Shown here in pieces: positions 1,321 to 44,919 of a stretch of 46,017 nucleotides of DNA (the stretch's first letter is position 1; each line of letters opens with the position of its first letter). Source of the stretch: Escherichia phage rolling. The stretch is from the sequence record NC_073056.1, one strand, 5' to 3'. Both the position numbers and the translations under genes were made by a program. Below the pieces are notes generated by a model. The model worked only from the letters and a program-made list of their open reading frames with translations, searched no databases and was not told the origin of the DNA.

Positions 1321-1350
1321 ACTATAGTGCAACCAACCTATTGGTTGCAA
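1321..1350 (-). promoter_or_regulatory. Leftward sigma70-like promoter (TTGCAA-N18-TATAGT) with inverted ATTGGTTGCA motif pair in the spacer
   Basis: Minus-strand -35 TTGCAA (1345-1350), -10 TATAGT (1321-1326); inverted repeat TGCAACCAA (1328-1336) / TTGGTTGCA (1341-1349); followed by GGGGGC/GCCCCC hairpin 1294-1311. Confidence 0.5.
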
Positions 1351-5831: not shown

Positions 5832-6110
5832 CTACGCGACCAATTCAGCAACCAATAAATTGCAGTCGGCTATGTTGTCTATAACGCGAACGTCAGCACC
5901 GCGGCGGGCCATCCGTTCATGTTCTCGCACCTGGTGCGGCTTCGGTTTTCCGCCGGGGCGCTTCACTTCGACGAATACTACTCTGCCGTTTATGATAATA
6001 ATCAGGTCGGGCGCACCTGCGCGCCCCTCCCATGCCAGTTTGCGGCAGAATCCGCCAACGGCTTTTACCAGCTTCATCAGGTGACTTTGTATCTTGCCTT
6101 CTGGAGTCAT
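5832..6110 (-). CDS. VRR-NUC domain nuclease
   Basis: PD-(D/E)xK-like GAPDLIIIINGRVVFVEVKRPGGKP signature; ATG start; ATGA overlap with next gene. Confidence 0.75.
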   Translation of the reverse strand: MTPEGKIQSHLMKLVKAVGGFCRKLAWEGRAGAPDLIIIINGRVVFVEVKRPGGKPKPHQVREHERMARRGADVRVIDNIADCNLLVAELVA

Positions 6111-8819: not shown

Positions 8820-9599
8820 TTAACGGCGGCGACGTTTACGTGGTGCTTCGTCTTCGTCGTCTTCGTCCTCATCTTCGTCATCGCGGGACTTACGACGTTT
8901 ACGCGGCTTATCGTCTTCATCGTCGTCATCTTCATCACGGCGGCGCTTAGACTTGCGCGGTTTTTCATCTTCATCATCGTCGTCACGACGTTTTGACTTT
9001 TTGGATTTACGCGGTGCTTCGTCTTCGTCATCATCCAGGTCGTCGTCAGAGCAATATGCACCGCCGCCGCCACCGAAGGAATCCCCATCATCACGGAAGC
9101 GCATACCCAGCAGACCACAGCCTAAGCCTTTGCCGTTGGTATTGTTCCAGGCCCAAATATCTAAGGAAACGTTGCAATAGCAACCGGAATAGATTTCTTT
9201 CCCTTCGATTTCGTCGCCGTCGATGGTCAGACCCTGCTCCGTCTGCTTCTCGCCTTCGGAAGTCTGGATGATCGGCTGTTTGAATGATTTAGCGTTGATA
9301 TACAGCTTACCTTCAAACTCTTCCGTTACTTCTTCACGCTCATCACCATCTCGAACGGCACATTCTTTCGAATCCTGCGCGTAGTGGCGGTCCATCCACT
9401 TATCGGCGTTCTTCTCAGACTTCAGTTTTTCGGTGAGCACTGCGCGTGCCGCCGCTTCCACTTTGTCCACCTGCGGATCTTCTTTATCAAGAATAATCAC
9501 CGCACGATATGCCGGTTTTTGTCCATCCTGTTTAGGGGTATCACGCTCCCAAATTTTCAGGAAGCATACACGTACATTTTTCAGGTTGACTTTAGCCAT
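8820..9599 (-). CDS. SSB-like protein, DUF2815 family, with unusual alternating acidic/basic C-terminal tail
   Basis: N-terminus MAKVNLKNVRVCF...GQKPAYRAVIIL resembles DUF2815 phage SSB; start at internal ATG (M32) with GAGGA RBS; last ~76 aa are D/E blocks alternating with PRKxKxRR blocks. Confidence 0.7.
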   Translation of the reverse strand: MAKVNLKNVRVCFLKIWERDTPKQDGQKPAYRAVIILDKEDPQVDKVEAAARAVLTEKLKSEKNADKWMDRHYAQDSKECAVRDGDEREEVTEEFEGKLYINAKSFKQPIIQTSEGEKQTEQGLTIDGDEIEGKEIYSGCYCNVSLDIWAWNNTNGKGLGCGLLGMRFRDDGDSFGGGGGAYCSDDDLDDDEDEAPRKSKKSKRRDDDDEDEKPRKSKRRRDEDDDDEDDKPRKRRKSRDDEDEDEDDEDEAPRKRRRR

Positions 9600-9654
9600 T
9601 TTCCAATTCCTCATTTCACATGTATCGGGGTTATTAGAAGCCACCCCGTCCGGC

Positions 9655-9678
9655 TTGGTTGCTAATGTACTTGGTTGC
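9655..9678. promoter_or_regulatory. Pair of TTGGTTGC motifs in SSB upstream region
   Basis: TTGGTTGC at 9655-9662 and 9671-9678, between membrane protein gene and SSB gene. Confidence 0.4.
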
Positions 9679-9929: not shown

Positions 9930-11352
9930 CGCCCAAATCCTCGTCGCTTGCTTCTTGCCATTCCGGGCGCGGGTCGTCAACTGGTGCCAGGACCGGTTTC
10001 GCCGGCGCACGCGTGATTTTATCTTGCAGTTTCGCCCACACTTTCGGTTTCTCATCCTTCAGCACCTTCTCGGCATCAGTAGGGCTGATTAATGATTCCT
10101 TGTACATCAGGTCGCGCTTGATCCGGGCCGTTGTGAATACAGCGATAACTTCGCTTTCATCCTTCCACTTACGCGCACCTTCACGACCAGCTACCAGCTT
10201 CAGGCCCAGCGCTTCGCCGTCACCGGCTAACACTGCTTTGAATACGGCAGTCTCGATCGCTTTGATGTGCTGGCGCATGGTTTCCAGGCCGTCGTAAGCC
10301 TTCTTCAGTTCTTCCGTGGTCATAGCACCGGCTGGCGCTTCTTTCTTGCCACGCTTCGCACGTCGGGCAGCTTTCCGGGCTTCGAGGTCCATGTTCTGGT
10401 CGTGGTTTTTGCATTCTTCCTCGGCGGCAATGCTTACATCGTCGCCCAGGTCTTCGTCGGTTGCCGTTGGTGGCGTCATTGTGTCGATGGCGGCTTTAGC
10501 GCGGGAACTACATTGGTCCGCAAATCGACACCACTGACACGCATCGGCGCTCGGACGGAAGTCTGCACGGGTGAGATTCTTCTTACCCTTAGCGAGGGCA
10601 TCCAGGGCGGCTACTGCGCGTTTTGCTGCGTACTTGGCGAAGATTTCCAGTGCTTCCACCGAAATATCCCACTCCGACGCCCCGCCGCAATACGGCTGGA
10701 ATATGACCAGGCGCACGGTTGTTATGTCGTACATCTTTTGCAGCTTGCGCAGCAGTCCGAGCGCATACAGCATAAGCTGTTTGTTCTCTTTCGCCTCGAC
10801 CTTATGGCGCCCGGTCTTCAGGTCGCCCACAATGAGCATGTACGTGCCGTCGGTCTTCTTCATTACCATAACCATATCGGCAGTACCGAAGGTCTTGATC
10901 GCTTCGCCGTCAATCTCGTAGCCTTTGTGCAGGACGCGAGTCAGATCCGCGCGCATCTCAAGCTGTACAAACTCGGCAACTTCAAGCAGCGGTCGCCAGT
11001 GGTCGATGTACGCGTCGCACTGTTTCACCATGTCGTCAGTTACCAGGATGGCGTCCTTAGGTGCTTTAGCTGCCGCTTTAACTGGTCCTTTACCCTGATT
11101 TTCGACGTAGCACCCTTTATATGTCTTCGCCGTGATGTGGTCTTCGCCTGCAATGATGCGGTTTAGTACCACTTCAGATACGGTGTGCATACTCGTACCG
11201 TTGATCGCGGCTTGCCCGGATTCGTTCGGAATACCTTTCTCCACCACCAGGGCGGCGGGACACCCCATCCATTTTTTAGCGCCGGATGGGCCGAGTAATG
11301 AGTGTTCTGTATTACTGCCGGATTGCGTCTTGCGCTTCGCTTTGATAGCCAT
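9922..11352 (-). CDS. PD-(D/E)xK nuclease, DUF2800/Cas4-like (phage exonuclease)
   Basis: N-terminal LLGPSGAKKWMGCP, GDLKTG, C-terminal Cys cluster CQWCRFADQC; conserved neighbour of DUF2815 and pol A. Confidence 0.75.
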   Translation of the reverse strand: MAIKAKRKTQSGSNTEHSLLGPSGAKKWMGCPAALVVEKGIPNESGQAAINGTSMHTVSEVVLNRIIAGEDHITAKTYKGCYVENQGKGPVKAAAKAPKDAILVTDDMVKQCDAYIDHWRPLLEVAEFVQLEMRADLTRVLHKGYEIDGEAIKTFGTADMVMVMKKTDGTYMLIVGDLKTGRHKVEAKENKQLMLYALGLLRKLQKMYDITTVRLVIFQPYCGGASEWDISVEALEIFAKYAAKRAVAALDALAKGKKNLTRADFRPSADACQWCRFADQCSSRAKAAIDTMTPPTATDEDLGDDVSIAAEEECKNHDQNMDLEARKAARRAKRGKKEAPAGAMTTEELKKAYDGLETMRQHIKAIETAVFKAVLAGDGEALGLKLVAGREGARKWKDESEVIAVFTTARIKRDLMYKESLISPTDAEKVLKDEKPKVWAKLQDKITRAPAKPVLAPVDDPRPEWQEASDEDLGDE

Positions 11353-11540
11353 TATTCGACCCTCGTAAATTGAGCAATATAATAATCATGCTTAATTCCT
11401 GCTTTCGCCGCGGCGTTATTCATTGTCGCTGCCAGTTCTTTCGCTTGCATCCAGCAACAATTCCAGTTCTGATTCATAATTATTTCCGGCTGTTCGTCGC
11501 CGGTGTTACGGCAGCGAAATAAAACAAAGAAAATACTCAT
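11352..11540 (-). CDS. Hypothetical small protein (62 aa)
   Basis: Internal ATG (M6 of track ORF 11352..11555); TAATG overlap with upstream gene. Confidence 0.4.
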   Translation of the reverse strand: MSIFFVLFRCRNTGDEQPEIIMNQNWNCCWMQAKELAATMNNAAAKAGIKHDYYIAQFTRVE

Positions 11541-11791
11541 TATGGCGTCTCCCAACGGTCAATAGTTTTTGCTTCAGATCCAACTGCAAAGCGAACATAT
11601 TCATGATTCGAGTCCGCCCATAAATAAAAGTCTGGATTAGCGAAGGTCGTGCGTTTAATTTGTGCCGGTGTTTCCCGCTTCTTACTAATTACGGCAACGC
11701 GCGATTGAAATGGGCCGGTGCGTTCGAATAGCCAATAATAAGGGCGCTGGTCGCGTGAATCCACCGCCTCGATTAGCGTGAAGCGTGCCAT
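11540..11791 (-). CDS. Hypothetical protein (83 aa)
   Basis: ORF track; GAGGA RBS. Confidence 0.6.
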   Translation of the reverse strand: MARFTLIEAVDSRDQRPYYWLFERTGPFQSRVAVISKKRETPAQIKRTTFANPDFYLWADSNHEYVRFAVGSEAKTIDRWETP

Positions 11792-11839: not shown

Positions 11840-12358
11840 TTAATCTTCTAATTCGAAATACGTTTCTACGATTTCTTTTAAATCTTTGTGGAAGTCTTCG
11901 ACGTCGTCATCTTCCAGCTTGGCGACGGATTTAATTTCGAACGCTTCCAGCAGATCATCAAATTCGTCGTTTGCGTCGTCGTCATCTCCGCCCGCAATAA
12001 TAGCGGCATACTGTTTGATTTCGTCGCGCATTTCTTTAAGCGGATCGGCATCTTTCTTGCCTTTGCCTTTCGCCGGTGCTTTCTTAGATTTCGCCGGGGC
12101 TTCTTCCTCGTCCGCGTCGTCGTCTTCTTCTACGGCTTCTTTCTTAGCCTTGCCCTTTGCGGGCGCTTTTTTGGTCTTTGCCGGGGCTTCGTCTTCAGCA
12201 TCGTCATCTTCGGCTACTTCTTCTTTCGCCTTGCCCTTTGCCGGGGCTTTCTTCGCTTCCTGTTTACCAACGGCAGCGCCAGCAGTTTCATAATGCTTAG
12301 CGATGGTTTCCAGTGCTACAACGCCGCGAGTGATCAGGTTTACGATTTGCTCAAACAT
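11840..12358 (-). CDS. Charged low-complexity protein with three KKAPAKGKxKK / acidic repeats; first leftward early gene
   Basis: ORF track; ATG with GGAG RBS; repeats EEVAEDDDAEDEAPAKTKKAPAKGKAKK x3. Confidence 0.7.
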   Translation of the reverse strand: MFEQIVNLITRGVVALETIAKHYETAGAAVGKQEAKKAPAKGKAKEEVAEDDDAEDEAPAKTKKAPAKGKAKKEAVEEDDDADEEEAPAKSKKAPAKGKGKKDADPLKEMRDEIKQYAAIIAGGDDDDANDEFDDLLEAFEIKSVAKLEDDDVEDFHKDLKEIVETYFELED

Positions 12359-12628: not shown

Positions 12629-12958
12629 ATGCATATCAACGACGCAATCGAAATGTTAACCAATGCTGTTAGCGGTGAGACAAGCCGGTCCTGGGCTTAT
12701 ACCGATGCCGTGGGTGAGGTGCTATTTGAAATCGAACGTCTGCGCAGTGTCGAAAAAGAATTGCGCGCCAAGCTGGAATTGCTAAACGGTACGGCAGCAA
12801 GCAAGTTGCAAAAGCACAACGAAGAAATGGAAGAATACAAAAAGCAGGTTATCCGTTTACGCGACGAGGGCAAGTCCTGGGCGATGATTGCCGAGTTGAC
12901 AGGAATTAATCAGAGCACCGTACGCTCATGGGTACGCAATAATAAAACTTCTAAATAA
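12629..12958 (+). CDS. HTH DNA-binding regulator (109 aa)
   Basis: C-terminal helix-turn-helix SWAMIAELTGINQSTVRSWVRN; ATG with AGGAG RBS. Confidence 0.75.
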   Translation: MHINDAIEMLTNAVSGETSRSWAYTDAVGEVLFEIERLRSVEKELRAKLELLNGTAASKLQKHNEEMEEYKKQVIRLRDEGKSWAMIAELTGINQSTVRSWVRNNKTSK

Positions 12959-12968
12959 GGCAACGGCA

Positions 12969-15230
12969 ATGAGAGATTATTTAATTGAGTTCGGCACCGT
13001 CGGCGGTAAATACGGCAAACGTGTTAAAAACCATTCTATGACTGAAGCCGAGTTTATGGAATACGTCGCTGATACCGTTGAATTATCCAGCGTAACCATT
13101 ACCGGCGACGAGACTAAGAAAGAATACGACGAGGTGAAAGGCAAGGCGGAAGGCATTGTCGCCACCACTAAAGGCCGGGGACGTCGTGCTACGGAAGTGG
13201 GTGTCCGTTCCGTACTGTTCTATGACCTGGACCGCACTGACAACCGTACCCTCGGTCGCGTTAAGCGTGCCTTTCGCAAATCCGGCTTATCCCACGTCTA
13301 CTACTCCACTACAGGCGACCGCCACCCGCTGAAGGGCGGCACACGTTGCGCCCGTTTCCTGGTGCTCACTGATAAACCGGTTGATGTTTCCGATTTAGGC
13401 CGTGCGCAGTTCGCACTATTGAAACACCTGGGGCTGGAAGACGTGCCGTTTGATGATTGCACAAAAAACGTTAACAACCTGCAATTCCTCCCCCATTCCG
13501 GATCTACCGTGTCGTGTCATCCTGGCACGCCAGCCCGTGTCCGTCGTCTGCTTCGCCTGGCTGACAAGCTGGGAGTGGAGAAAGAGGAAGTACGCCGCGA
13601 ACTGACCCAGGGCGACGATGGCGTGGCGGACGGGATTCTGGATTGGTGCTTCCAGGCTGGCTTTGAACCACTGTCATCCGGTCGCGGTTATGAAGTGCCG
13701 TGCCCGAACGAGCACCTGCATAGCGGCGGCGGGTCGACGGCTATCATGGTTAAGGATGGCGAGATCCGTTTCAAGTGTATGCACACCGGAAACGAGTGCT
13801 GTTCCGAACTGAACAGACACCAGCACCTGGCGCTACGTCTTATAGGGATCCCGGACCACCTGAACGTCGAACCGCACAACATGTCACGTAAGCAAATCGC
13901 CGCCATTCTCCCTGGACTGGACGACGAGGAAGTCGAATCGTGCTATGAACATATTGTTGATGCAGTTGGCGACGGCGAAGAATACGGCGTGTGCACCGAT
14001 GCGGATCTGGATAACGAGCCGGTCGCACTCTTCAGTAAGCACGACCCGATCATAGAAGGCCTGGTAAACTTCAAATCGACCTGGTACATGGCTGGCGAGT
14101 CGAACATCGGTAAATCGTTCTACGTGCTGGGGCAAATGGGCGCGGTTGCCGCGGGGATTCCGTTCGGTGGCGCGAAGGTAGTCCAGTCTCATTGCTTCTA
14201 TTTCGACGCGGAAGGTGGTGAAGCCTCCAACCAGCGTAAAGAAGCATTGCAGATTAAATACGAGCACGACCTGGACAAGCTGCACATTATCGATCTGCAA
14301 TCACGCGGCTGGGATATCACCAGCAAATCCGGCTTGCGTGAAGTTATCAGCTTCATCAACCGCACCGCTAACGGCGAGCCGGTTGGCCTGGTGGCGTTCG
14401 ACTCACTCAACCAGACTGTTGCGCTGCGGTCCGCCGATGCAAAACCGTTCGACGAGAATAACGCCAGCGATATGGGTGAAGTGGTCAAAGCGCTGAAGGC
14501 CATTGCGGAAAATACAGGCGGCAGTGCGGGCGTCATCCACCACCCAGCGAAGGGTGCAAACGGCAGCAGATCTCCCCGTGGGTCCGGCGCGCTTCATGGT
14601 GCTGTTGATTCTGCGTTCTTCCTGGAACAGCCGGATGACAACCAGCCAGGCCAACTCAACCTGTATCACGAAAAATCCCGTAACGGGATTAAGCAAGCGC
14701 CGCGTGGCTTCGTCCTGCTCAAATGCAAGGTGAAGGTGGATCTCCGTAAGTCCGAGGCGTTCGAAGCCCACCAGTCCACCAGCACCGGTCCGGACTTCGG
14801 CGATGTGGTTGCCGGTTGGGACGTCAAGCCAATTGCATCCACGCCACGCGACGAGACTCTCTACCTCGTACCGGTCGCCCTGGCACCGTTCGCTATCGAA
14901 CAGGCGAAGGCGGCTGGCAAGGCAGCAGTTAAGGAAGAGAACACCGCCGGTCCGCGCAACGAAAAAGAGAAAGTGCTTTATGCGGCGCTGGAAAAACTGA
15001 TGGAAGATAACCCGGACCATACCGGATTCAGTAAATCGGCAATTGTCCGCCAGGCAGGGCTGGCAAAAGGTGGCACTTCGACGAAGGCAATCGACGATAT
15101 GGTGGAGCGCGGAGTGATAGGTTTTTACACCGATCCGCACACCGGGGCCATCTATGGGTCGTCTAATTTGGTCATAAAAACGAATATACCCATCACGCTT
15201 TCGGCGACCGATGACGACCTGAAAGATTAA
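12969..15230 (+). CDS. Primase-helicase replication initiator (primase-polymerase N-domain, RecA-like ATPase, C-terminal winged-helix-like region)
   Basis: Walker A GESNIGKS, RecA-like AFDSLNQ / VIHHPAKG segments, C-terminal HTH-like tail. Confidence 0.85.
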   Translation: MRDYLIEFGTVGGKYGKRVKNHSMTEAEFMEYVADTVELSSVTITGDETKKEYDEVKGKAEGIVATTKGRGRRATEVGVRSVLFYDLDRTDNRTLGRVKRAFRKSGLSHVYYSTTGDRHPLKGGTRCARFLVLTDKPVDVSDLGRAQFALLKHLGLEDVPFDDCTKNVNNLQFLPHSGSTVSCHPGTPARVRRLLRLADKLGVEKEEVRRELTQGDDGVADGILDWCFQAGFEPLSSGRGYEVPCPNEHLHSGGGSTAIMVKDGEIRFKCMHTGNECCSELNRHQHLALRLIGIPDHLNVEPHNMSRKQIAAILPGLDDEEVESCYEHIVDAVGDGEEYGVCTDADLDNEPVALFSKHDPIIEGLVNFKSTWYMAGESNIGKSFYVLGQMGAVAAGIPFGGAKVVQSHCFYFDAEGGEASNQRKEALQIKYEHDLDKLHIIDLQSRGWDITSKSGLREVISFINRTANGEPVGLVAFDSLNQTVALRSADAKPFDENNASDMGEVVKALKAIAENTGGSAGVIHHPAKGANGSRSPRGSGALHGAVDSAFFLEQPDDNQPGQLNLYHEKSRNGIKQAPRGFVLLKCKVKVDLRKSEAFEAHQSTSTGPDFGDVVAGWDVKPIASTPRDETLYLVPVALAPFAIEQAKAAGKAAVKEENTAGPRNEKEKVLYAALEKLMEDNPDHTGFSKSAIVRQAGLAKGGTSTKAIDDMVERGVIGFYTDPHTGAIYGSSNLVIKTNIPITLSATDDDLKD

Positions 15231-15339
15231 TTTGTGCGCGTATTGGTTGCCGATATGGGAATTCCCATATCGCTAAAAGATTAAATTTTGCGCGCATTGG
15301 TTGCCATTTTGGGTGTTTTTAGCTGGTCGCATTGGTTGC
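15222..15339 (+). repeat. Tandem duplication of primase 3' end with three ATTGGTTGCC motifs and a 22-bp perfect palindrome
   Basis: AAAGATTAA..GCGCG.ATTGGTTGCC at 15222-15251 and 15276-15305 (~27/30 identical); palindrome CGATATGGGAATTCCCATATCG at 15251-15272; third ATTGGTTGC at 15331-15339. Confidence 0.7.
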
Positions 15340-15371
15340 CGTGTAGTGTAAATATAGTGAATAGTTATGCA

Positions 15372-15547
15372 GTTTTATTGCATAAAGTAAGCGGGACAAA
15401 AAGCGGGACAAACATGGGGCGGGACAAAGCGGGACAGCACCCCCTGTCCCGCCCGGATGGCGCGGCTTGCGGAGGAGCGGGACAGGCGGGACAAACCTCA
15501 GTCTTTCAGACTAGACGGGGTCAGTTGGCCCCCCTCGTCTGAGACTG
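15372..15547 (+). repeat. Iteron array 1: GCGGGACA x7 with TGCATAA motifs and conserved ~50-bp imperfect hairpin
   Basis: GCGGGACA at 15391, 15403, 15419, 15429, 15477, 15487 plus inverted TGTCCCGC at 15445; hairpin 15499-15547; AT-rich stretch just upstream. Confidence 0.85.
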
Positions 15548-15701
15548 CATAAAATCCGGGATTGCATAACGCACGGCAGCATGATGTGAATTGCGGTCGT
15601 CGATGAACTAGGCAACCAATGCGTGTTGAATAATGGAGAGTGAAAAATGCAGTTTGCAGTTGCAGCAGATAGCGATCAACTTTTTCATACGCATGATTAA
15701 T

Positions 15702-15742
15702 ATTGGTTGCATTCAGCCTGGCACCCTGCTAGATTGGTTGCA
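15702..15742 (+). promoter_or_regulatory. Promoter-like element with two ATTGGTTGCA motifs upstream of gene 15764
   Basis: ATTGGTTGC 15702-15710 and ATTGGTTGCA 15733-15742; TTGCAT-N17-TAGATT reads as a sigma70-like promoter. Confidence 0.45.
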
Positions 15743-18697: not shown

Positions 18698-18762
18698 TTG
18701 CTTGACTTGCAACCAACATAAGGGCCATACTGCAACCAATCAACGAGAAGGAGTAACACACT

Positions 18763-25229: not shown

Positions 25230-25362
25230 ACCGCCTTGCACATTTGAGAATGCCTCGGCAGACCCAGACGAAGACTTGCTTGTTGATGTTAAAAATATGG
25301 AGTGCGGATCTAAGCTGCGGGCGCAAGTGCTGGAGTTGCAGAAAATAATTCTGGGGCCGTGA
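25132..25362 (+). CDS. o-spanin (Rz1-like lipoprotein), overlapping Rz in +1 frame
   Basis: Signal peptide with lipobox LSAC, Pro-rich mature part; ATG with AGAGG RBS. Confidence 0.75.
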   Translation: MLRVLTVLIVVLMLSACGSSKAPSTPLTESVYRPPCTFENASADPDEDLLVDVKNMECGSKLRAQVLELQKIILGP

Positions 25363-25379
25363 TGGCCCCCCTTTTGTTA
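25340..25379 (+). terminator. Terminator hairpin, left copy of a 40-bp direct repeat
   Basis: AGAAAATAATTCTGGGGCCGTGATGGCCCC + T-run; GGGGCC/GGCCCC stem, Rz1 stop codon in the loop. Confidence 0.7.
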
Positions 25380-25893: not shown

Positions 25894-25915
25894 TTTCATT
25901 TCCTCGTGGTTATGT

Positions 25916-25955
25916 AGAAAATAATTCTGGGGCCGTGATGGCCCCTTTTTTGTTA
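25916..25955 (+). terminator. Terminator hairpin, right copy of the 40-bp direct repeat
   Basis: 30/30 identical to 25340-25369 then T6; duplicates the last codons of Rz1 plus the hairpin. Confidence 0.7.
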
Positions 25956-26739: not shown

Positions 26740-26811
26740 TGCAACCAATATAGTGCAACCAATACCTGTATTGCAAGCGAATTTTGCGATTATTTTTATC
26801 GCTGATAATAT
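26740..26811. promoter_or_regulatory. Back-to-back divergent promoters (leftward for moron genes, rightward for scaffold/capsid)
   Basis: Leftward: TTGCAA (26771-26776) N18 TATATT (plus 26747-26752), with TGCAACCAAT at 26740-26749 and 26754-26763; rightward: TTGCGA (26784-26789) N16 TAATAT (26806-26811). Confidence 0.5.
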
Positions 26812-31586: not shown

Positions 31587-31616
31587 TTTGGTCGCTTAAA
31601 TAGCGAGTGTTAATAT

Positions 31617-31639
31617 GGGGCCTGCACGGCCCCTTTTTT
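31617..31639 (+). terminator. Intrinsic terminator after major tail gene
   Basis: GGGGCC-TGCAC-GGCCCC followed by T6. Confidence 0.7.
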
Positions 31640-31655
31640 ATTGGAGAATATTACA

Positions 31656-32018: not shown

Positions 32019-32332
32019 TTGAGGCGGCGCGACGCTTTTATGGCCCGCCGCCACCCTCCGAAGATTTAGCCGCTAGTTTATGGGGTGCGGCCCCCGAGGA
32101 TGTTTGTCCACCTGTTGCGCTATGGCCCGACAACGCGAAGATAGTCGCCGTATTCACAGATTGCTCTACGCAATGGCGCACCGGATTCGGTGGGGCATAC
32201 GGCATCGACTACGGCGTTCTGGAGTGGCTATTTAAGATGCACGGCATCGAAAACGAGCAACGTGCATTTAAAGATATAAAGCTAATGGAGCGAATCGCGC
32301 TTGATGAAATGGCGCAACAAAACCCCGCATAA
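31656..32332 (+). CDS. Tail assembly chaperone G-T fusion by -1 programmed frameshift (join 31656..32015, 32015..32332)
   Basis: Heptamer A AAA AAC at 32009-32015; the -1 frame is closed just upstream and open for ~105 codons downstream to TAA 32330-32332. Confidence 0.65.
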
Positions 32333-32336
32333 TGAA

Positions 32337-32661
32337 GCGGGACGGATCGGGACGTCCCGATTTGTCCCGTTTTGTCCCGCCCCCAGTAAAACTGCATACC
32401 TACCCACTTTCATTGCATAAACTCAAAGCGGGACAAGCGGGACGCCCCGATCCGTCCCGCCCATTAAATGTGCATACCTATTCAGATCTCGTGCATAAAA
32501 CAAACGGGACAAAAAGCGGGACAAACATGGGGCGGGACAAAGCGGGACAGCACCCCGTCCCCGTCAGTGCTGCCGCGGGTTTTAGCCGATCGGGACAGGC
32601 GGGACAAAGCCCAGTCTTTCAGACTAGACGGGGGTCAGTTGGCCCCCCTCGTCTGAGACTG
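32337..32661 (+). repeat. Iteron array 2: GCGGGACA-type repeats (>=14 copies) with TGCATAA motifs and the same conserved hairpin
   Basis: Copies at 32337, 32347, 32428, 32437, 32516, 32532, 32542, 32599 and inverted copies; palindrome CGGGACGTCCCG 32348-32359; ~52-bp and ~65-bp blocks near-identical to array 1; hairpin 32612-32661. Confidence 0.85.
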
Positions 32662-32730
32662 AATAAGGTTTGTTTGAAATTCGCTGATACAATGTCAATC
32701 GGCAACTGCATAAAAAAAGGGGACTGCATA

Positions 32731-35376
32731 ATGGCAGATCAAGCAGCAGGCATCACGCTAAAGGCGGATGTTGCACAAATCAGAACGGCGAATACGGTGC
32801 TGGACTCATTCGCGCAGAAGTCCGAGAACACCGAAAACAAGGTTAAGAAATTAAACGACACGCTCGGCAACTCGAAAAAGGTGACGAGTGACGCCGCGGG
32901 CGGAATGGAGAAACTTGCGAACGAATCGCAGCGCGCCGCAGATGGCATGACGAAGCAGGAGCGACTTGCCAACCGCTTAGGCATGTCAACCAAAAACCTC
33001 GGCTTTGCCTCACGTAACGCCGCATTTCAGTTACAGGATATTGCGGTCACGCTTGAGATGGGTATGCCGGTGCACCGTGTCATGCTTCAGCAGCTACCGC
33101 AGTTAACTGGGGCATTCGGTGGCCTGGGTAACACGCTGCGTTATGTTGCTGGTTTTCTCGGTCCGGTAGGGATCGGTCTTGCTGCGGTAACGGCGACGTT
33201 AGGCGTAGGCGTGGCGATTACGTCCCGCGCCGAAAACCAGGTAGCGGCGCTGAATAAGACGCTGGCGCTATCAGGTAATATCTCTGGCCTCACCGCTAAC
33301 CAGATCCTGGTGCTGTCGGAGAACGCCGAACGCATGGGCGGGTCATTCAGCAAGACGCGTGACACAATTCAGGCACTGGCGGCAGCAGGTGTGAAAGCGG
33401 GTGCTGACTTCGGCGCACTGGCGAAAGTGGTGAACGACTTCGCGAAGGTGTCTAATCAGCCGATCGCGGACGTGGTGGAGTCCATCTCCAAATTGTCCAA
33501 CGACCCGGTGGGCGGCTTGCGCGCACTGGCGGACAAGTATCACGTCGTTACCGAGGCGCAGATCCAGCAGGTGCAATCCCTGGTGACGACGGGCCGCGAA
33601 ACCGAAGCGGTGGCGTTGGCTAACAAAACAGCCGCGGCGTCGTTCACCAGCATGACCAACGAGATCAAGTCCAACATGGGTACGCTTGAGCGGTCAATGA
33701 ACGTAGTCACATCGGCAGCCAAATCTATGTGGGATGCCATCCTGGATGTGGGCCGCGCGCAGTCCTCGAATGAGTCCGAGATGAAAGCGCGTGAATCCTT
33801 GCAGCGCATGACAACGGCCTACTATGCCGAGATGAAAGCGGTAAACGCTGCCGGTGGGGTAATGACCGAGGCGCAGAAAGCACGAATTAACATGCTTTAT
33901 AGCGAACTGGTCGCCCAGGAGAAAGTAGTAGCGTCACTCACCCTGCGCAACCGTGCTGAGCGTGACAACGCAAGCGCCGCGGACAAATCAGCGAAGGCGA
34001 ACGAGGAGGCCAACCGCACCGCCCGCGACCGCGCCGCGTTCGAGAAGGAATTTGCCACCAACGCGCAGAAGCGCGCCGACGAGATCGCCCGCCTCAATTT
34101 GCTGAATAAGCGCGGTGTGATTAACGAGAAAGAACTAGCCGAGGCGGTGAAGCAGGTCAACGAGCGCTACAAAGACCCCGCACCGAAGAAGGCGGCGGCT
34201 ATTCGCGTGGATGCTGGTGTCAAAATGCTGGAGGTCGCACGGAGCGAACTGGCGCAGCTTAAGGAGTCCGGCAAGCAGATCGAGGCCAATGCGACAACGC
34301 AGACCCGCACGCAGCGCGCACAGGCCGCGTTGAATAAGCTGGTGGCGGATAATGAGCAGATGGTCACAGCAAGCAAGGAGCGCACACTAACGGCAGCAGA
34401 AAAGCAGCAGATGGCGGAGTTCGAGGCGGTTAAAGCAGTACGCGAGCAGATCGTCGAAGAAGCCAAGTTGCTGGACGCGAAAGAGAAGCAGATCAAGGCA
34501 CACGCCCAGGTCGAGGCATTCATCAAGAACCAGAACGCTGAGCTAAGGGCCACCGCTGCGGGCTATGCGCTTTCCACTCGCGAAGCGGCTAACCTGCGCG
34601 AAGAATTACAGCTAATTGACCGCCTTCAGCGTGTCGGCGCTAACGATACTGATATTGACAACGCGGTGTCTAAGCTGCGCGAAGTGCAGGAAGCACAGAC
34701 CGGTGCTAACGCCTCGTTGTGGGATGGCTTCAGCCGCGGGCTTAAGGATAGCGTGGATGAAATGGGTAACGGCTACACGCAGATGACGTCACTCACAAAA
34801 TTCACGTTCGGCGCTATGCAGGACACGATGAACAAGTTTTTCGAGACGGGCAAGCTGAGCGCGAAGGATATGGTTAAGTCCATCCTGAGCGAATTAATCA
34901 AGCTGGCTACCTCGCAGGCGTTCAAATCCGTCGTTAGCGCTTTCGGCGGTGACGGCGGCAAAAACGGATTGTTCGGCGCTATCTTCTCCGGCCTCACTAA
35001 GAACGCAGACGGCGGAGCGTACGCAGGAGGCAACCTCGCGGCCTATTCGGGGCAAGTGGTAAGCCAGCCTACCTTTTTCAGCTATGGCGTCCAGGCGTTC
35101 GCGAAGGGCGCAGGATTGATGGGTGAGGCTGGACCCGAGGCAATCATGCCACTGAAGCGCGGGCCGGATGGGAAACTGGGCGTTGCCGCTGCCGGTGTTG
35201 GTGGGGGTGGGATGATTGTAACGACCAACGTGAACATGGGGACCGGTAAAACGGACACCAGTGTGAGCGGACCGGACCCACGCACCGCGCAGGCGTTCGG
35301 CAAGCAAATCACCGAGTCGGTCAAGGCCGAGATCGTGAAAGCGACGAAACCGGGTGGAGTACTTTACAAACGATGA
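32731..35376 (+). CDS. Tape measure protein
   Basis: 881 aa from internal ATG (M134 of track ORF 32332..35376; upstream part runs through the repeat array); coiled-coil Ala/Gln-rich centre, Gly-rich C-terminus. Confidence 0.85.
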   Translation: MADQAAGITLKADVAQIRTANTVLDSFAQKSENTENKVKKLNDTLGNSKKVTSDAAGGMEKLANESQRAADGMTKQERLANRLGMSTKNLGFASRNAAFQLQDIAVTLEMGMPVHRVMLQQLPQLTGAFGGLGNTLRYVAGFLGPVGIGLAAVTATLGVGVAITSRAENQVAALNKTLALSGNISGLTANQILVLSENAERMGGSFSKTRDTIQALAAAGVKAGADFGALAKVVNDFAKVSNQPIADVVESISKLSNDPVGGLRALADKYHVVTEAQIQQVQSLVTTGRETEAVALANKTAAASFTSMTNEIKSNMGTLERSMNVVTSAAKSMWDAILDVGRAQSSNESEMKARESLQRMTTAYYAEMKAVNAAGGVMTEAQKARINMLYSELVAQEKVVASLTLRNRAERDNASAADKSAKANEEANRTARDRAAFEKEFATNAQKRADEIARLNLLNKRGVINEKELAEAVKQVNERYKDPAPKKAAAIRVDAGVKMLEVARSELAQLKESGKQIEANATTQTRTQRAQAALNKLVADNEQMVTASKERTLTAAEKQQMAEFEAVKAVREQIVEEAKLLDAKEKQIKAHAQVEAFIKNQNAELRATAAGYALSTREAANLREELQLIDRLQRVGANDTDIDNAVSKLREVQEAQTGANASLWDGFSRGLKDSVDEMGNGYTQMTSLTKFTFGAMQDTMNKFFETGKLSAKDMVKSILSELIKLATSQAFKSVVSAFGGDGGKNGLFGAIFSGLTKNADGGAYAGGNLAAYSGQVVSQPTFFSYGVQAFAKGAGLMGEAGPEAIMPLKRGPDGKLGVAAAGVGGGGMIVTTNVNMGTGKTDTSVSGPDPRTAQAFGKQITESVKAEIVKATKPGGVLYKR

Positions 35377-38148: not shown

Positions 38149-41100
38149 CGATTGTATACGACGTCACGGGTCATAAAGGCGGAGGTGGCAAACAGCACAC
38201 CCCACAGGAGACGCCTGATAGCCTGCATTCGCTGGCTAAAATCCGCATCTTGCTCGCACTGGGCGAGGGCGAATTTGAAGGCAGTCCCGACCCTAACGAA
38301 TTACGGCAGCGTGTATACCTGGACGGCACACCGATCCAGAACGCCGACCTGTCGGATAACTTCCCCGGCGCGCGCGTGGAGTTCCGCCCCGGCACGCAGC
38401 ACCAGGATGTGATTCACGGTTTTTCAGCGGTGGAAAGCGAGCAAACAGTAGGCGTAAAACTGGAGAACGGCGCGCCGTGGGTGCGCCAGATTTCGGACAC
38501 CAGTTTGGACGCCGTGCGCATTCGAATCGGTATTCCGGCCCTGTACACCAACGAAGATAATGGCGACCTGGTGGGCGGGCGCATCGACTATAAAATCGTT
38601 GTGTATACCGACAATGCTGATCCGCGGGAGTTTACATTCGCTGCCGTTGGTAAAACAATGTCGCTGTATGAGCGAGATCACCGCATCGAATTACCGCCGA
38701 ACGTTAACACCGGCTGGCGCGTGGAGGTGCACCGCACAACGGCTGATTCCACATCGGCAAAAGTGGTCAACGATATCCGGGTACAATCCATTACAGAGAT
38801 TATCGACGCCCGCCTGAGATACCCGCTAACGGCGCTGTTGTTCGTGGAGTTCGACGCTAAGGCGTTCCAGAACATCCCGCGCGTGTCCATCAAGTGCAAA
38901 GGCCGCAAAGTGCTGGTCCCGAACAACTATGACCCGATTAATCATACCTATTCGGGGGACTGGGATGGCACATTTAAACGCGCATGGACGGATAACCCTG
39001 CGTGGCACTGGTACGATATTTGTATTACTGAGCGCTTCGGCCTTGGTCGTCGTGTCAAGCCGCAAATGCTAAACCGCTATGCGCTATACCAGATCGCCCA
39101 GCGCTGCGATCAGAAAGTCAGTGACGGCAACGGCGGACAGGAAATCCGATTTAAGAATGATATGTACATTCAGTCGCAGACCGACGCATGGACCGTGCTG
39201 AAGGATTTAGCGGCAATCTTTGCAGGAATGACCTGGTGGGGCAACCAGATGTTGAATATTGTCAGTGACCAGCCGGTCGCAGCGGTATCGCATACTATCA
39301 CCAACGCCTCGGTCATTGATGGTCGATTCGACTACGCATCGGGAAGCCAGAAAACTCGGTATTCCACGTTCGCGGTAGCATACGGCAACCCGAAGAACCA
39401 CTATGATGACGCCATCGCAACGGGCCAGCGTGTCGAACTGGTGCGCCGCCATAAGATTAACCGCCTTGATATCACGGCGATCGGCTGTACGCGAGAATCT
39501 GAAGCGCAACGCCGCGGTCACTGGGCGCTAATCTCCAACCAGCTTGACCAGCAAGTTAGCTTCAAGGTTGGCATGGAGGGGCTATTCTTTATTCCGGGGA
39601 GCGTAGTCTCGATCGCAGATACTAACATTTCTGGTGGCTTCGAGACACGCGGCGGACGCCTGTTGTCAGATCCGGGCACGCGTGCCGTGCTGAACACGGA
39701 CAGCGAAATCACGTTCCGCCCTGGTGATAAATTCCTGGTGCGCACCGATAGCGGTAATGTGGAGACTCGCGAGATTGCCAGCGTCAACGGCAACCAGGTC
39801 ACGCTAAAAACCGCACTGGACTCCGACCCGATTCCCGATCAGCCGTTTTGCGTGGATGGCGACGATATCCAGTTGCAGAAGTTCCGCATCACCGATCTGG
39901 AATATGACGACGCTACCAGCACTTTTTCGGTGCGCGGGATTGAGTACAACGATAGCAAATATGATGCCGTTGATAATGGCGCGCGTCTTGATCCAGGTAT
40001 CTTCACTCAAGTGCCGGACGGCGTGATGAAGGGGCCAGAATCCGTTACTATCACCCCGTCGCAGATTTCATCGCAAGGCCAGCTAATCACCAACGTAGAT
40101 ATTGTTTTTCCGCCGGTGAAGGATGCCGTTGTGTACGAAATCCAGTGGCGACGTACCAGCTTGCAGAATATGGAAGTACAGTGGGGCAACGACTGGGTTA
40201 ACATCCCCCGCACGGCGTCGAACGGCGCGCACATCCCGAACGTGTTTTCTGGTAACTACCAGGCACGCGTCCGCGCTATCGGTATGGGCGAGATTTCATC
40301 CCCGTGGGTATCATCTGCAATCACGCCGGTAGAGGGTCGTCTTGGCGGGCTTAACGCGCCTATCATCACCAACGCGATTTCGGGTCTTCACCAAATTTTG
40401 TGGAAGTGGAACCACAACAACGCCGCGACGGATATTTCGTATACCGAGCTTGAAGTGCGCAAGCTGGGTGAGACTGAATGGAAATTCTTGACCAACGTCC
40501 CATATCCGGGGTCGGACTATGCGCAAACGTCGCTGGAGTTCGGGATCTACCAGCAGTTGCGCGCACGCGTAGCGGATAAAATCGGCAACCTGTCGGACTG
40601 GTCAGACCCGTTTGACGGTCAGGTGAGTGACAAAGTTGACGAGTACATGCAGGGGCTTGATGACGAGTTCTTGACTTCCGAGGACGGTAAACACTTCCAG
40701 GAAGCAATCGACACCATTCCGCAGGGCATTTATGAGGCCATGCTCACCGACGCGCAGCAGTTGTTTAACGCCCGCTCCGAGTATCAAGGGATTTATGCGG
40801 AAATCAAGGTGGCGTACAACGTTGCGGTGGACGCAAACGAGGCCGTAGCGCAACTGGAAACGCTGATCGGCACACGCCTTGACGATGCGGAAGCGTCAAT
40901 CCACACGTTGCAGACTGCGCAAAGCACGCACGAACAAGCGTTCGCCCAGTATCAACAAACTGTTGCCGCTAAGTTCGGGGAACAGGAAGCTGCCATCCAG
41001 CAGGTACAAACGGCAACGGCAGACGTAGCGGGCGCGCTGGCTGAGTATAAGACCCAGGTAGCGGCACAGTTCGGTCAGCAGTCCACAGCGATCGAGCAGA

Positions 41101-42814: not shown

Positions 42815-42894
42815 GGTATCATCTCCTATATTTGGTTGGGTTTTAGTATTGCACCGCTCAACCAAGAATGCAACCAATTTATGAGGATTCAGCT

Positions 42895-44919
42895 ATGGCA
42901 GCGGGTACACTATCCGTAACGAATAACAGCAAGGCGGTAGTCGGTGTCGGCACGACGTTCACCGCGTTTAAAGCTGGCGACTTCTTAACGTTGGTGGTGG
43001 GGCAAGTCCCTTACACTGTTGCTATCGCGTCCGTCGAAAGCGACACCGCGCTTACGCTGGTGCTGCCGTTCGACGGCCCCACGGCAACCGGCCTTGCCTG
43101 GGATGGCGTTGCGCGTGATACCATGTCCCTGGCGACGATGGGCGTAACAGTCCAGGCGCAGAAAGCATTTCGCTTGATGATTGCAGATGAAAACAACTGG
43201 CGTGCCATCTTCGGCGACGCTGAAGAAATCACAGTGACGTTACCAAACGGGCAGGTTATGCAGGGCATGTCATGGGGCTATCTGTCAAGTCTTCTAAAAG
43301 ACGTTGACCCGGTGGAGCTTCAGAATATTGCCAACCAGGCGGTGAGCGCGAAAAACCAGGCTGTAACCGCGAAAAACGATGCTGTGTCTGCCAAGAATGA
43401 TGCGCAGACTGCGAAGACTGCCGCAGAAACAGCGCGCACGCAAGCCCAGTCGGCTAAGACCGCCGCAGAGTCAGCACGTGACGACGCGCAGACGGCTAAG
43501 ACTGCCGCAGAAACAGCACGCACCCAGGCACAGACCGCGAAGACCGCCGCAGAAACCGCCAAGGGTGCGGCGGAAGACGCCCGCGATGAGGCGAAGCAAT
43601 ATGCAGAGCAAGCCGGAGCACCATATAAGCAGGTATTACAACCGCTACCAGACGTGTGGATTCCGTTTAACGATTCGCTGGATATGCTCGCAGGCTTCGC
43701 GCCCGGATACAAGACGGTTACGGTAGCCGACGACGAGGTTACTATGCCGAGCGACAAGGTGGTGTCGCTCAAGCGCGCATCAACGGCAACATATATTAAC
43801 AAGTCCGGCGAGTTTAAAATCGCAGAGATTGACGAGCCGAGATTCGAAAAATACGGCCTGCTCATTGAAGGCCAACGCACTAACCACATCATCAACGGGG
43901 GCGCTCCGGCTGGCTGGGGCCACAGCACATCGGTTGGCGTGGTTACGGGTACAGATGCTTTCGGTTTCTTGTATGGAAAGTTTGGTATCGGCCAGGGCGA
44001 CGTGGGCAGTACGACTGCGCTTAACCTGGCTTCCGTAACATCAGCAAACAGTCTGGATACTTCCGGCGTCGATAAGTATGTAACGGCGTCATGCCGCTTT
44101 CGGTCCGACAAGGATGTACGTCTTCGTGTGCGTTTTGCAGAAGGCGCGGATCAAGGCAGCATGGCTTTCTCTGGCGACGCGTACATTAAATTAAGCGATT
44201 TGTCCGTGTCTAAGACGGGTGTCGCGGCAGACCGCATTACCGTAGAAGTCGAGAAAGACGAAGCCACCGGATGGAATCGTGCGGTGGTAATGCTGCAAGC
44301 TACCACGGCGCTGGTGAACGCGCAGATCCAGATCTCGCCAGTGAGCAGTTATGCTGCCGGTGATTATATCGAACTGGCAACTCCGCAGGTTGAGTTAGGG
44401 ATCGGGGCGTCTTCATATATCATCTCCGGCACATCTCCAACCACACGCGCTAGCGATATGGTGACGGTACCGGCTAACCGCAACCTGTATAACCTGCCGT
44501 TTACGGTGCTTGTAGAAGTTCACAAGAACTGGTCTAAGGCGCCGAACGCAGCGCAGCGTGTATTCGACACCGGCGGTCATCAATCGGGTGCGGCTATTAT
44601 CCTGGGATTCGGGTCTGGCGCTATTGACGGGTATCCGTACTGCGACATCGGCGGTGCTAACAGACGTTTGAATGAAAACGCAGGGCTTAAGCATATGGTT
44701 ATGGGTATGCGTGTGAAAGAAAACCAGGACACTTGCGCGGTGAGTAACGGCATTCTTTCGACCGAATCGAAAACCACATGGACCTACCTGAAAGGGTCTG
44801 CGACGCTGCGAATCGGGGGTCAAACAACGACTGGAGACAGACACCTGTTCGGGCACGTCCGTAACTTCCGTATCTGGCATAATGCGCTGACCGACCTACA
44901 AATGGGGGAATTAGTGTGA
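42895..44919 (+). CDS. Tail fibre protein with internal Ala/Thr/Lys-rich tandem repeats
   Basis: Internal ATG (M10) with GAGGA RBS; repeats AKNDA.. / QTAKTAAETARTQ. Confidence 0.75.
   Translation: MAAGTLSVTNNSKAVVGVGTTFTAFKAGDFLTLVVGQVPYTVAIASVESDTALTLVLPFDGPTATGLAWDGVARDTMSLATMGVTVQAQKAFRLMIADENNWRAIFGDAEEITVTLPNGQVMQGMSWGYLSSLLKDVDPVELQNIANQAVSAKNQAVTAKNDAVSAKNDAQTAKTAAETARTQAQSAKTAAESARDDAQTAKTAAETARTQAQTAKTAAETAKGAAEDARDEAKQYAEQAGAPYKQVLQPLPDVWIPFNDSLDMLAGFAPGYKTVTVADDEVTMPSDKVVSLKRASTATYINKSGEFKIAEIDEPRFEKYGLLIEGQRTNHIINGGAPAGWGHSTSVGVVTGTDAFGFLYGKFGIGQGDVGSTTALNLASVTSANSLDTSGVDKYVTASCRFRSDKDVRLRVRFAEGADQGSMAFSGDAYIKLSDLSVSKTGVAADRITVEVEKDEATGWNRAVVMLQATTALVNAQIQISPVSSYAAGDYIELATPQVELGIGASSYIISGTSPTTRASDMVTVPANRNLYNLPFTVLVEVHKNWSKAPNAAQRVFDTGGHQSGAAIILGFGSGAIDGYPYCDIGGANRRLNENAGLKHMVMGMRVKENQDTCAVSNGILSTESKTTWTYLKGSATLRIGGQTTTGDRHLFGHVRNFRIWHNALTDLQMGELV

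Follow-up and report, generated by a model that had tools for sequence, protein, structure and literature searches.

A second, larger iteron array in the tail-gene block of Escherichia phage rolling as a probable origin-type site

Why should the tail genes of a lytic phage be interrupted by some 400 bp of repeat-rich, apparently non-coding DNA? The window (the whole stretch of DNA analyzed, 46,017 nucleotides) is the complete or nearly complete genome of phage rolling, a Dhillonvirus (HK578/SO-1-like lytic coliphage), and its gene order agrees with that of annotated relatives. Members of this genus are lytic and circularly permuted, package DNA by a headful mechanism and have no plasmid state (PMC9022532). 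Replication and recombination genes occupy the minus strand to ∼12.4 kb. A rightward block then opens with a gene for a 109-aa HTH protein (12629-12958, plus strand), followed by the gene for a 753-aa helicase-primase (12969-15230, plus strand) and by small genes and the lysis, terminase, head and tail genes. The stop codon (TAA) of the frameshifted tail chaperone (GT) is at 32330-32332 and the ATG of the tape-measure gene is at 32731, leaving a gap of 398 bp. This entire interval (32333-32730, plus strand) is designated “array 2”. A related “array 1” (15357-15552, plus strand) starts 127 bp downstream of the helicase-primase gene, whereas array 2 is 17 kb from this gene, inside the tail block.

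To describe the repeats, exact CGGGAC/GTCCCG hexamers were counted. There are 14 in positions 32333-32731, seven in array 1 and 12 in the other 45 kb of the genome; the background predicts 0.11 per 399 bp, compared with the 14 observed in array 2. The heptamer CGGGACA occurs 20 times in the genome versus 6.5 ± 2.4 times in shuffled sequences, and 16 of the 20 copies are inside the two arrays. Array 2 can be divided into three units. Units A and B each consist of a palindromic iteron cluster and then an AT-richer spacer, and unit C is shared with array 1. The cluster of unit A (32337-32380) reads GCGGGAC-GGAT-CGGGAC followed directly by GTCCCG-ATTT-GTCCCG-TTTT-GTCCCGC, giving two direct and three inverted units with a perfect palindrome, CGGGACGTCCCG, at 32348-32359. 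Among 14 relatives these units are conserved and the spacers between them are variable. The cluster of unit B (32428-32460; GCGGGACAA-GCGGGAC-GCCCCG-ATCC-GTCCCGC), delimited by hexamer count and repeat search, is inverted relative to unit A (inverted repeat I6, 26 nt, 92% complementary). A sequence-only reading of this DNA had claimed at least 14 units, a perfect palindrome and flanking inverted copies, and all three were recovered here.

The AT-richer spacers of units A and B each carry TGCATAC and TGCATAA 21 bp apart on the plus strand. The first pair (32393-32420), whose motif is conserved, is the inverted counterpart of GAATAGTTATGCA in array 1 (inverted repeat I3), and the second pair (32471-32498) marks the start of the block common with array 1. 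Eight of the 14 copies of TGCATAA in the genome are in or at the arrays, with spacings that differ among sites (17, 18 or 21 bp). Array 2 lacks a clear AT-rich unwinding element as well as consensus sites for DnaA or IHF; the DnaA-like sites in it each have one mismatch, overlap TGCATAA and are not conserved, and were rejected as DnaA boxes.

Unit C comprises, in order, four direct CGGGACA iterons, a central palindromic segment, two iterons and a long imperfect hairpin. The four direct iterons (32505-32549, plus strand; spacings 12, 16 and 10) match positions 15392-15436 at 52 of 53 bases. Alignment of the arrays and their orthologues identified the centre, CCCCGTCCCCGTCAGTGCTGCCGCGGGTTTTAGCCGAT (32550-32590, plus strand), as specific to array 2; CCAGTGCTGCCGCG is nearly invariant in array-2 orthologues, unlike the array-1 centre. 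Two more direct iterons, CGGGACAGGCGGGACA (32591-32606, plus strand), were placed by alignment with array 1. The hairpin (32612-32661) has the form CAGTCT-TT-CAGAC-TA-GA-C-GGGGG/loop/CCCCC-C-TC-GTCTG-AGACTG, and folded as DNA it has a free energy of −12.7 kcal/mol with a z score of −2.7 (z −3.3 for the minus strand). Beyond unit C, a direct pair ACTGCATAA...ACTGCATAA (32707-32731, plus strand) surrounds the ribosome-binding site of the tape-measure gene and is the counterpart of a pair at 15546-15569, after the array-1 hairpin.

Note that in phage rolling an ATG reading frame (32332-35376) crosses array 2 in frame into the tape-measure gene. In 14/14 relatives, however, this frame is closed by a stop 5 to 34 codons upstream of the tape-measure ATG (at 14 codons in eleven of them), and no reading frame across array 2 is consistently open in the relatives. 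Array 2 was for these two reasons considered non-coding, as had been proposed for a region of ∼400 bp, and the in-frame ORF was considered accidental. An N-terminal extension of the tape-measure protein was likewise rejected, the frame being open in phage rolling only. In many database records the tape-measure gene is extended across the array, or small ORFs are annotated within it, and correction of these would follow.

The two arrays were then compared directly. Array 1, as defined by repeat search and alignment, contains GAATAGTTATGCA/TGCATAA, four direct, one inverted and two direct iterons, and a hairpin at 15499-15547. Approximately 195 bp of array 2 (32470-32666) duplicates 15357-15552; in the repeat search, 15357-15520 and 32470-32633 were 82% identical and 15517-15552 and 32631-32666 were 97% identical. 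Pairwise alignment gave two near-identical blocks, the first made up of the four direct iterons and the second of two iterons and the 50-nt hairpin, with an array-specific centre between them. Array 1 is without units A and B, so that array 2 corresponds to the whole array-1 module plus extra units. The alignment agrees in this respect with the earlier description of a second, larger copy in the tail-gene block 17 kb from the first, with two blocks nearly identical to it.

Identity between array 1 and array 2 was 0.885 within a genome versus 0.851 between genomes (permutation p ∼2e-4), and the identity of orthologous arrays (0.87) was similar to the likeness of the two arrays within a genome. 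The loop TCAGTTGG is found in phage rolling only, where it is present in both arrays, and the spacer AAACATGGGG is found elsewhere in array 1 of SO-1 only. The two arrays therefore exchange sequence and evolve in concert, while each keeps its own conserved centre. For genome engineering, the arrays should be treated as direct repeats of 195 bp at which recombination and assembly breaks are likely. Breaks inside the hairpin or the array were seen in MZ234029.1, LR990702.1, OX460974.1 and one IMG/VR contig (L011), and are more plausibly put down to interference of the repeat and palindrome with assembly. A packaging site or genome end at array 2 was rejected, since circular permutation and headful packaging have been reported for the genus.

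Whether the arrays are conserved in related genomes, a question raised by the sequence-only reading, was examined at several distances. A 3-kb query around array 2 matched 157 phage records in GenBank at 80-97% identity, and array 2 was present in 157/157 Dhillonvirus GenBank records. In 15-genome alignments, conservation covers iterons, TGCATA motifs and hairpin stems, and the spacers and the loop are variable with small indels; across 25 variants of the hairpin, the stems are near-invariant and the loops variable. Both arrays are also present in a metagenomic relative (loci L034 and L255) with ∼70% protein identity, and in L255 the stem of the array-2 hairpin carries one compensatory change from A-T to G-C. 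Judged from its retention and these alignments, array 2 is under selection. Among more distant phages, no gap is present at the junction between chaperone and tape-measure genes in locus L259, Salmonella phage St162 or Serratia phage Otaku. St162 has a single array, and in Otaku one inverted TTCCGCACA pair in the head-gene block, with no extended repeat, was rejected as a second array because it was too weak. At the same junction, loci L255 and L258 carry minus-strand genes.

The sighting of both arrays is not new, as they are already annotated in the record of Sodalis phage SO-1 (GenBank GQ502199, 2009). There the two loci are entered as repeat_region features, “region A” (11214-11597), which is array 2, and “region B” (40178-40657), which is array 1. 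The portion of the record's note that was available lists direct, inverted and palindromic repeats and similarity with region B, followed by “possible ...”. A literature search found no paper on the function of regions A and B, and no paper on, or experimental mapping of, a Dhillonvirus replication origin.

To ask where arrays of this type occur outside the genus, IMG/VR was scanned with the pattern CGGGACA-N1-10-CGGGACA-N1-10-CGGGACA, using no protein information. It yielded at least 120 stretches, the majority non-Dhillonvirus. Among these, 28 loci place the array close to a gene for a RepA/AAA_25-type helicase: the start of the array is −130 to +290 bp from the 3′ end of that gene, in most cases no more than 60 bp away, and array and gene generally share a strand; in five loci (L101, L103, L121, L155 and L173) it is on the strand opposite the helicase gene. 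The helicases of these loci are 23-29% identical to the phage rolling protein, over the ATPase core only. Perfect hairpin stems of at least 8 were found in 15/28 arrays versus 24/560 control stretches, and a G/C-run hairpin ends many of the non-Dhillonvirus CGGGACA arrays. The array type is therefore physically coupled to genes for RepA-like helicases or helicase-primases across many unrelated phages. We regard this coupling as new evidence, drawn from sequence comparison, that ties the array type to replication. GC skew was rejected as an origin marker; it turns at ∼12 kb, where the direction of transcription switches, coincides with neither array and tracks transcription direction only.

Arrays with other repeat units were found directly after the helicase-primase gene in St162 (GGGGAGA), in Otaku (TTCCGCACA) and in Rhizobium phage 16-3 (GCGTGACA and a G/C hairpin). 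Because closer relatives keep the layout and change the repeat unit, the iterons seem to track the initiator, which is an origin-type pattern. The correspondence between unit and initiator is not simple: the unit differs in these three phages, yet distant helicases with an unrelated C-terminus adjoin CGGGACA. No sequence or profile similarity was found between the Dhillonvirus winged helix and the C-terminal domain of the distant CGGGACA-associated helicases (hhalign probability 3%), and a DNA-binding domain common to both was rejected on this basis. Due to this dissimilarity of the C-terminal domains, the shared CGGGACA unit may be convergent or may be read by something else.

The 753-aa helicase-primase (phrog_3228) is the proposed protein partner of both arrays. 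In a Pfam scan of eight proteins of the phage rolling genome, its only match was AAA_25 (7e-19). An AlphaFold model of the protein had a mean pLDDT of 73.6, and its core matched the structures 1g8y, 1nlf and 1olo with TM scores of 0.66-0.68 and rmsd values of 3.0-3.5, the best match being RSF1010 RepA (1g8y; TM 0.68, rmsd 3.0). A separate model of the last 117 residues predicted three helices and a wing (pLDDT 75-90). This C-terminal region (residues ∼665-740) is a predicted winged helix resembling MarR-family DNA-binding domains, the ORC2 winged helix and histone H1, with Foldseek probabilities of 0.9-0.99 and weak E-values of 0.03-0.3. The C-terminal domain also gave a weak Pfam match to Ribosomal_S25 (E 0.037), a family of winged-helix proteins, and it diverges faster than the remaining protein. 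The N-terminal third contains invariant D86xD88, a His and a Cys/His cluster. No primase family in Pfam or NCBIfam matched this N-terminal part, and the fold search with the whole protein was dominated by the RecA core. The label “primase” is therefore putative, being based on the PHROG name and annotation and on the invariant Asp, His and Cys residues.

Taken together with the anatomy of the locus, these data indicate that array 2 is probably a second origin-type assembly site for the helicase-primase, with SPP1 oriL/oriR as its closest counterpart. The helicase-primase, in its layout of putative primase part, RepA-like hexameric helicase and winged helix, would bind CGGGACA iterons through the C-terminal winged helix and assemble on the clustered direct and palindromic sites. 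It would then open the neighbouring AT-richer TGCATAA segments, and the conserved long hairpin might be exposed as a loading or priming signal, like the ssi hairpins of RSF1010 oriV. The helicase-primase as binder and a start or stall of replication at array 2 are both what we infer, as is any choice among three roles for the array. Array 2 could fire as a second origin; it could, when bound by the initiator, act as an obstacle that stalls forks and triggers a switch from theta replication to concatemers, as proposed for SPP1 oriR; or it could serve as a helper in cis, like P4 crr. The first and third of these roles are as possible as an SPP1-oriR-like stall. Note that a second copy of the array is not a general requirement of the replication module, because St162 and others have one array.

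An indirect, circumstantial hint in the same direction comes from defence studies. Mutants of HK578 that escape OLD defence map to the helicase-primase and to its operon promoter, and the same study showed that OLD senses hairpins at the origin of lambda (bioRxiv 10.64898/2026.07.10.737580). An alternative candidate for the protein that binds the arrays is the 109-aa HTH protein, which is co-transcribed with the helicase-primase and has HTH_23 and sigma-70 region-4-like HTH matches.

This sigma-region-4-like motif, encoded nearby, also bears on an explanation in which array 2 mainly controls transcription of the distal tail genes, with its repeats binding a phage regulator and restarting or insulating transcription after the terminator of the major tail gene. 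The terminator scan found a strong intrinsic-terminator-like hairpin after that gene (31617-31633, plus strand; repeat family D5), and both arrays are at boundaries within the long rightward gene block. An extended -10-like motif, TGATACAAT (32685-32693, plus strand), was seen by eye 38 bp upstream of the tape-measure ATG; it is invariant in 15/15 aligned Dhillonvirus sequences, went unreported by the consensus promoter scan and may be a promoter for that gene. The GC-rich palindromes of units A and B, with T runs after them, score as terminator-like, although weakly, and one of them is annotated as a terminator in phage WFI. We nevertheless consider this explanation unlikely. The array type travels with helicase genes across unrelated phages, and not with tail or late genes, and TGATACAAT is not conserved in L255, which retains the array. 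Relatives including St162 and Otaku lack a gap at the junction and still express their tape-measure gene. Within the array, the promoter scan found no promoter, the TGCATA-N17-CATAAA pairs match sigma-70 promoters poorly (7/12 by eye) and the spacing of TGCATAA varies.

Array 2 could instead be a duplicate of the origin with no function, which entered a permissive intergenic site once, in the ancestor of the genus, and has stayed similar to array 1 through gene conversion alone; this would account for the clear exchange of sequence between the arrays. The junction between the G/T and tape-measure genes does tolerate insertions, as the minus-strand genes of L255 and L258 illustrate, and other genera with the same replication module carry one array. 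This explanation is quite improbable in view of the conservation described above. Direct repeats of 195 bp that are 17 kb apart should promote deletions, but array 2 has been kept in all 157 records. Its conservation is motif-specific, with spacers and loop drifting. The array-2-specific centre is conserved among orthologues, and array 2 has two additional conserved iteron clusters, units A and B, that are absent from array 1. The compensatory change in the stem in L255 also argues against a neutral duplicate.

A strongly conserved terminal hairpin might also suggest that both arrays encode a structured RNA on the plus strand, either a small RNA that titrates a protein through its GGGACA repeats or an antitermination RNA acting in cis, like HK022 put. 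Both copies are oriented as late transcription is, and 32500-32700, folded as RNA, somewhat exceeds shuffled sequences in stability (z −2.2). The probability that we assign to such an RNA is nonetheless very low. There were no Rfam matches at the gathering score and no ARAGORN genes, so a tRNA, tmRNA or known RNA family at array 2 was rejected. The hairpin contains no G-U pairs and folds with equal stability from either strand, the arrays of five loci are opposite to the strand of the helicase gene (see above), and promoter scans gave nothing convincing. The inverted or palindromic form of many units fits recognition of double-stranded DNA.

The clustered inverted repeats at dispersed positions resemble the centromere sites of prophage N15, which are scattered over its genome. 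The sequence-only reading had offered a centromere-like site as one alternative, but partition or other DNA-positioning sites are hardly credible here, since no ParA/ParB-type gene is annotated in the fully annotated relative Bas83, searches of plasmids and E. coli chromosomes gave no match to the array element, and the phages are lytic, package DNA by the headful mechanism and have no plasmid state (PMC9022532). Decoy or satellite copies in E. coli chromosomes or plasmids were rejected for lack of matches. A duplicated mobile cis-element, another alternative put forward from the sequence, fared no better, as no E. coli genome or plasmid contains a match and the position is fixed in all relatives.

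The reading of array 2 as a second origin-type assembly site for the helicase-primase can be widened, but only tentatively. CGNGACA-type iterons with a G/C-run hairpin directly 3′ of genes for RepA-like helicases or helicase-primases might constitute a widespread and so far undescribed origin architecture, in which Dhillonvirus would stand apart by having two copies that gene conversion keeps alike. The tail-block copy would then set the switch to concatemers, either as a programmed barrier to forks or as a second origin, and the palindromes would also be the hairpin trigger for OLD-type defences. We regard this wider proposal as rather doubtful in its entirety. The reading would span very different hosts, from Dhillonvirus and Rhizobium phage 16-3 to dozens of metagenomic contigs (GC 0.46-0.69). 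The family-wide module of helicase, iterons and hairpin is more novel than the sighting of array 2 itself. Few coliphages are isolated as often as Dhillonviruses (157 GenBank records), which are represented in the BASEL collection and are used in defence studies. A defined pair of origin-type sites in them would provide an E. coli model for a two-origin logic so far worked out in SPP1 only, and would explain why OLD-escape mutants map to the helicase-primase.

Among known systems, array 2 was compared first with origins of the iteron type, in which short direct and inverted repeats are clustered in non-coding DNA. Array 2 has this composition. A position beside the initiator gene is found for array 1 (127 bp) and for the 28 unrelated loci, but not for array 2. 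Partition sites of the parS type would be expected together with ParA/ParB genes and a plasmid or prophage lifestyle, neither of which was found. The helicase core is most like that of RSF1010, in that a RepA-type hexameric helicase is predicted from the structural model (TM 0.66-0.68) and from Pfam AAA_25. The iterons and conserved hairpin of array 2 also recall RSF1010 oriV, where hairpins are priming signals (PMC4234260), a putative role for the hairpin of array 2. RSF1010 differs in using three separate proteins (the iteron binder RepC, the helicase RepA and the primase RepB′), in having ssiA and ssiB hairpins that face opposite strands within one origin, and in being without a second distant origin copy. 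Plasmid pRN1 (orf56/orf904) and the SaPI/PICI Rep-ori systems share the gene order, a gene for a small DNA-binding protein followed by a primase-helicase-winged-helix gene, with the origin directly 3′ of the latter, and pRN1 also has a long stem-loop at its origin (PMC4234260). They differ in that neither has a duplicated origin, and pRN1 has an SF3 helicase and no iterons.

The sequence-only reading had likened the two arrays to P4 ori/crr. Two iteron clusters in cis, several kb apart, are indeed common to both systems. P4 alpha is an SF3 helicase, the P4 iteron is TGTTCACC, and P4 crr is not a full copy of ori. The core of the phage rolling protein is RepA/RecA-like, no primase family was detected in it, and a winged helix alone is common. 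Because helicase class and iteron sequence differ, P4 is not a family match; the iteron and origin part of the analogy is the part that we favour, given the coupling to helicase genes and the C-terminal winged helix. P4 alpha is similar in that it combines primase and helicase in one multidomain protein and binds the repeats by a C-terminal winged helix, and different in having a bacterial-type (Toprim) primase (PMC4234260), whereas the core in phage rolling is RepA/RecA-type.

SPP1 is, like phage rolling, a lytic headful-packaging siphovirus (∼44 kb) with two similar repeat-containing regions, which in SPP1 are origins ∼13 kb apart. Its oriL is in or at the initiator gene, and its oriR is in non-coding DNA that splits the late morphogenesis genes; according to the proposal for oriR, initiator bound there stalls forks and triggers the switch from theta to sigma (rolling-circle) replication (PMC6316719). 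The same arrangement is suggested here by two similar regions, one at the replication genes and one interrupting late genes. The two systems differ in several respects. SPP1 divides the work among the gp38/gp39/gp40 set, in which origin binding falls to a dedicated protein, gp38, and a loader and a DnaB-type helicase are distinct from it, whereas the candidate in phage rolling is a single fused helicase-primase. The SPP1 repeats are unrelated in sequence to array 2, and oriR is among head genes whereas array 2 is between the chaperone and tape-measure genes. Binding and replication were demonstrated biochemically for SPP1, while the arrays described here are known from sequence. By analogy of arrangement, SPP1 oriL/oriR would be a closer precedent for array 2 than P4.

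In many database records the tape-measure CDS is drawn through array 2, the CGGGAC/GTCCCG repeat array between the tail chaperone and tape-measure genes (window ORF 32332-35376). Other records call “hypothetical proteins” of 30-65 codons within the array, such as Bas83_0020 and Bas83_0021 of the relative phage Bas83. Both the array-spanning CDS and the small ORFs are probably annotation errors. Several independent assemblies (MZ234029.1, LR990702.1, OX460974.1 and the IMG/VR contig L011) start or end in the interior of array 2 (window ∼32556-32656), with two of the ends falling within the hairpin loop. These ends are probably an assembly artefact caused by the 195-bp repeat and the palindrome; less probably, they are real DNA ends. 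Minus-strand inserted genes are also found at the chaperone/tape-measure junction of the more distant relatives L255 (5470-5990) and L258 (5450-6338), which makes the site a hot spot for insertions. The inserted genes carry what appear to be their own ATTGGTTGC-type promoters.

Intergenic copies of ATTGGTTGC recur on both strands of the window, frequently as the palindrome GCAACCAAT...ATTGGTTGC. Allowing up to one mismatch, 26 copies were counted in the window versus 13 expected. The intergenic sites lie at window 1329-1348, 2889-2914, 5836-5856, 9654-9678, 12427, 15242-15339, 15612, 15702-15741, 18709-18740, 26741-26763 and 42870. Array 1, the copy downstream of the helicase-primase gene, is flanked by ATTGGTTGC, and in L255 the motif lies upstream of array 2. 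The overlap of ATTGGTTGC with promoter-like TTGCAx -35 elements suggests that it is an operator or promoter motif of the phage.

Near-identical putative terminator hairpins (TGGGGCC-loop-GGCCCC, then a T run) form another family, found downstream of the major tail gene and, in the head region, around the pair of genes on the minus strand (window 25337-25379, 25913-25955 and 31601-31643). Tandem repeats are also present in coding sequence. An 84-nt unit (43348-43536) is repeated within a 683-aa ORF (42868-44919) located where Bas83 has its tail-fibre gene, and the remaining repeats (8835-9035 and 12021-12253), acidic and lysine-rich, are in two minus-strand genes.

Among IMG/VR loci with three closely spaced CGGGACA units (L101-L177), RepA-like helicase genes are followed directly 3' by a CGGGACA array (for example L119:4523, L129:6075, L135:4786, L146:4410 and L156:3950) and then by a G/C-run hairpin (for example CACCCCTATAGGGGTG and CCCCCCCCCTAAAGGGGGGGG). 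Unrelated viral contigs with this arrangement number at least 28 and range in GC content from 0.46 to 0.69. The associated helicases share the C-terminal motif WRxxFY...KKAFxRA, in which one Arg is invariant.

The order of helicase gene, iterons and hairpin is also seen, with repeat units differing from CGGGACA, in Serratia phage Otaku (TTCCGCACA, L261:26300-26560), Rhizobium phage 16-3 (GCGTGACA, L262:2560-2930, 3' of gene p101) and Salmonella phage St162 (GGGGAGA, L260:12690-12900). In Otaku, a single inverted pair of its origin-type repeat units (TTCCGCACA...TGTGCGGAA) additionally occupies a gap inside the head-gene block (L261:15473-15500); this pair could be the remnant of a second site, or a mere terminator. 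Despite their unlike iterons, St162 and Dhillonvirus array 1 have GAATAGTTATGCA in common. This shared sequence could be a target for a conserved portion of a protein or for a host factor.
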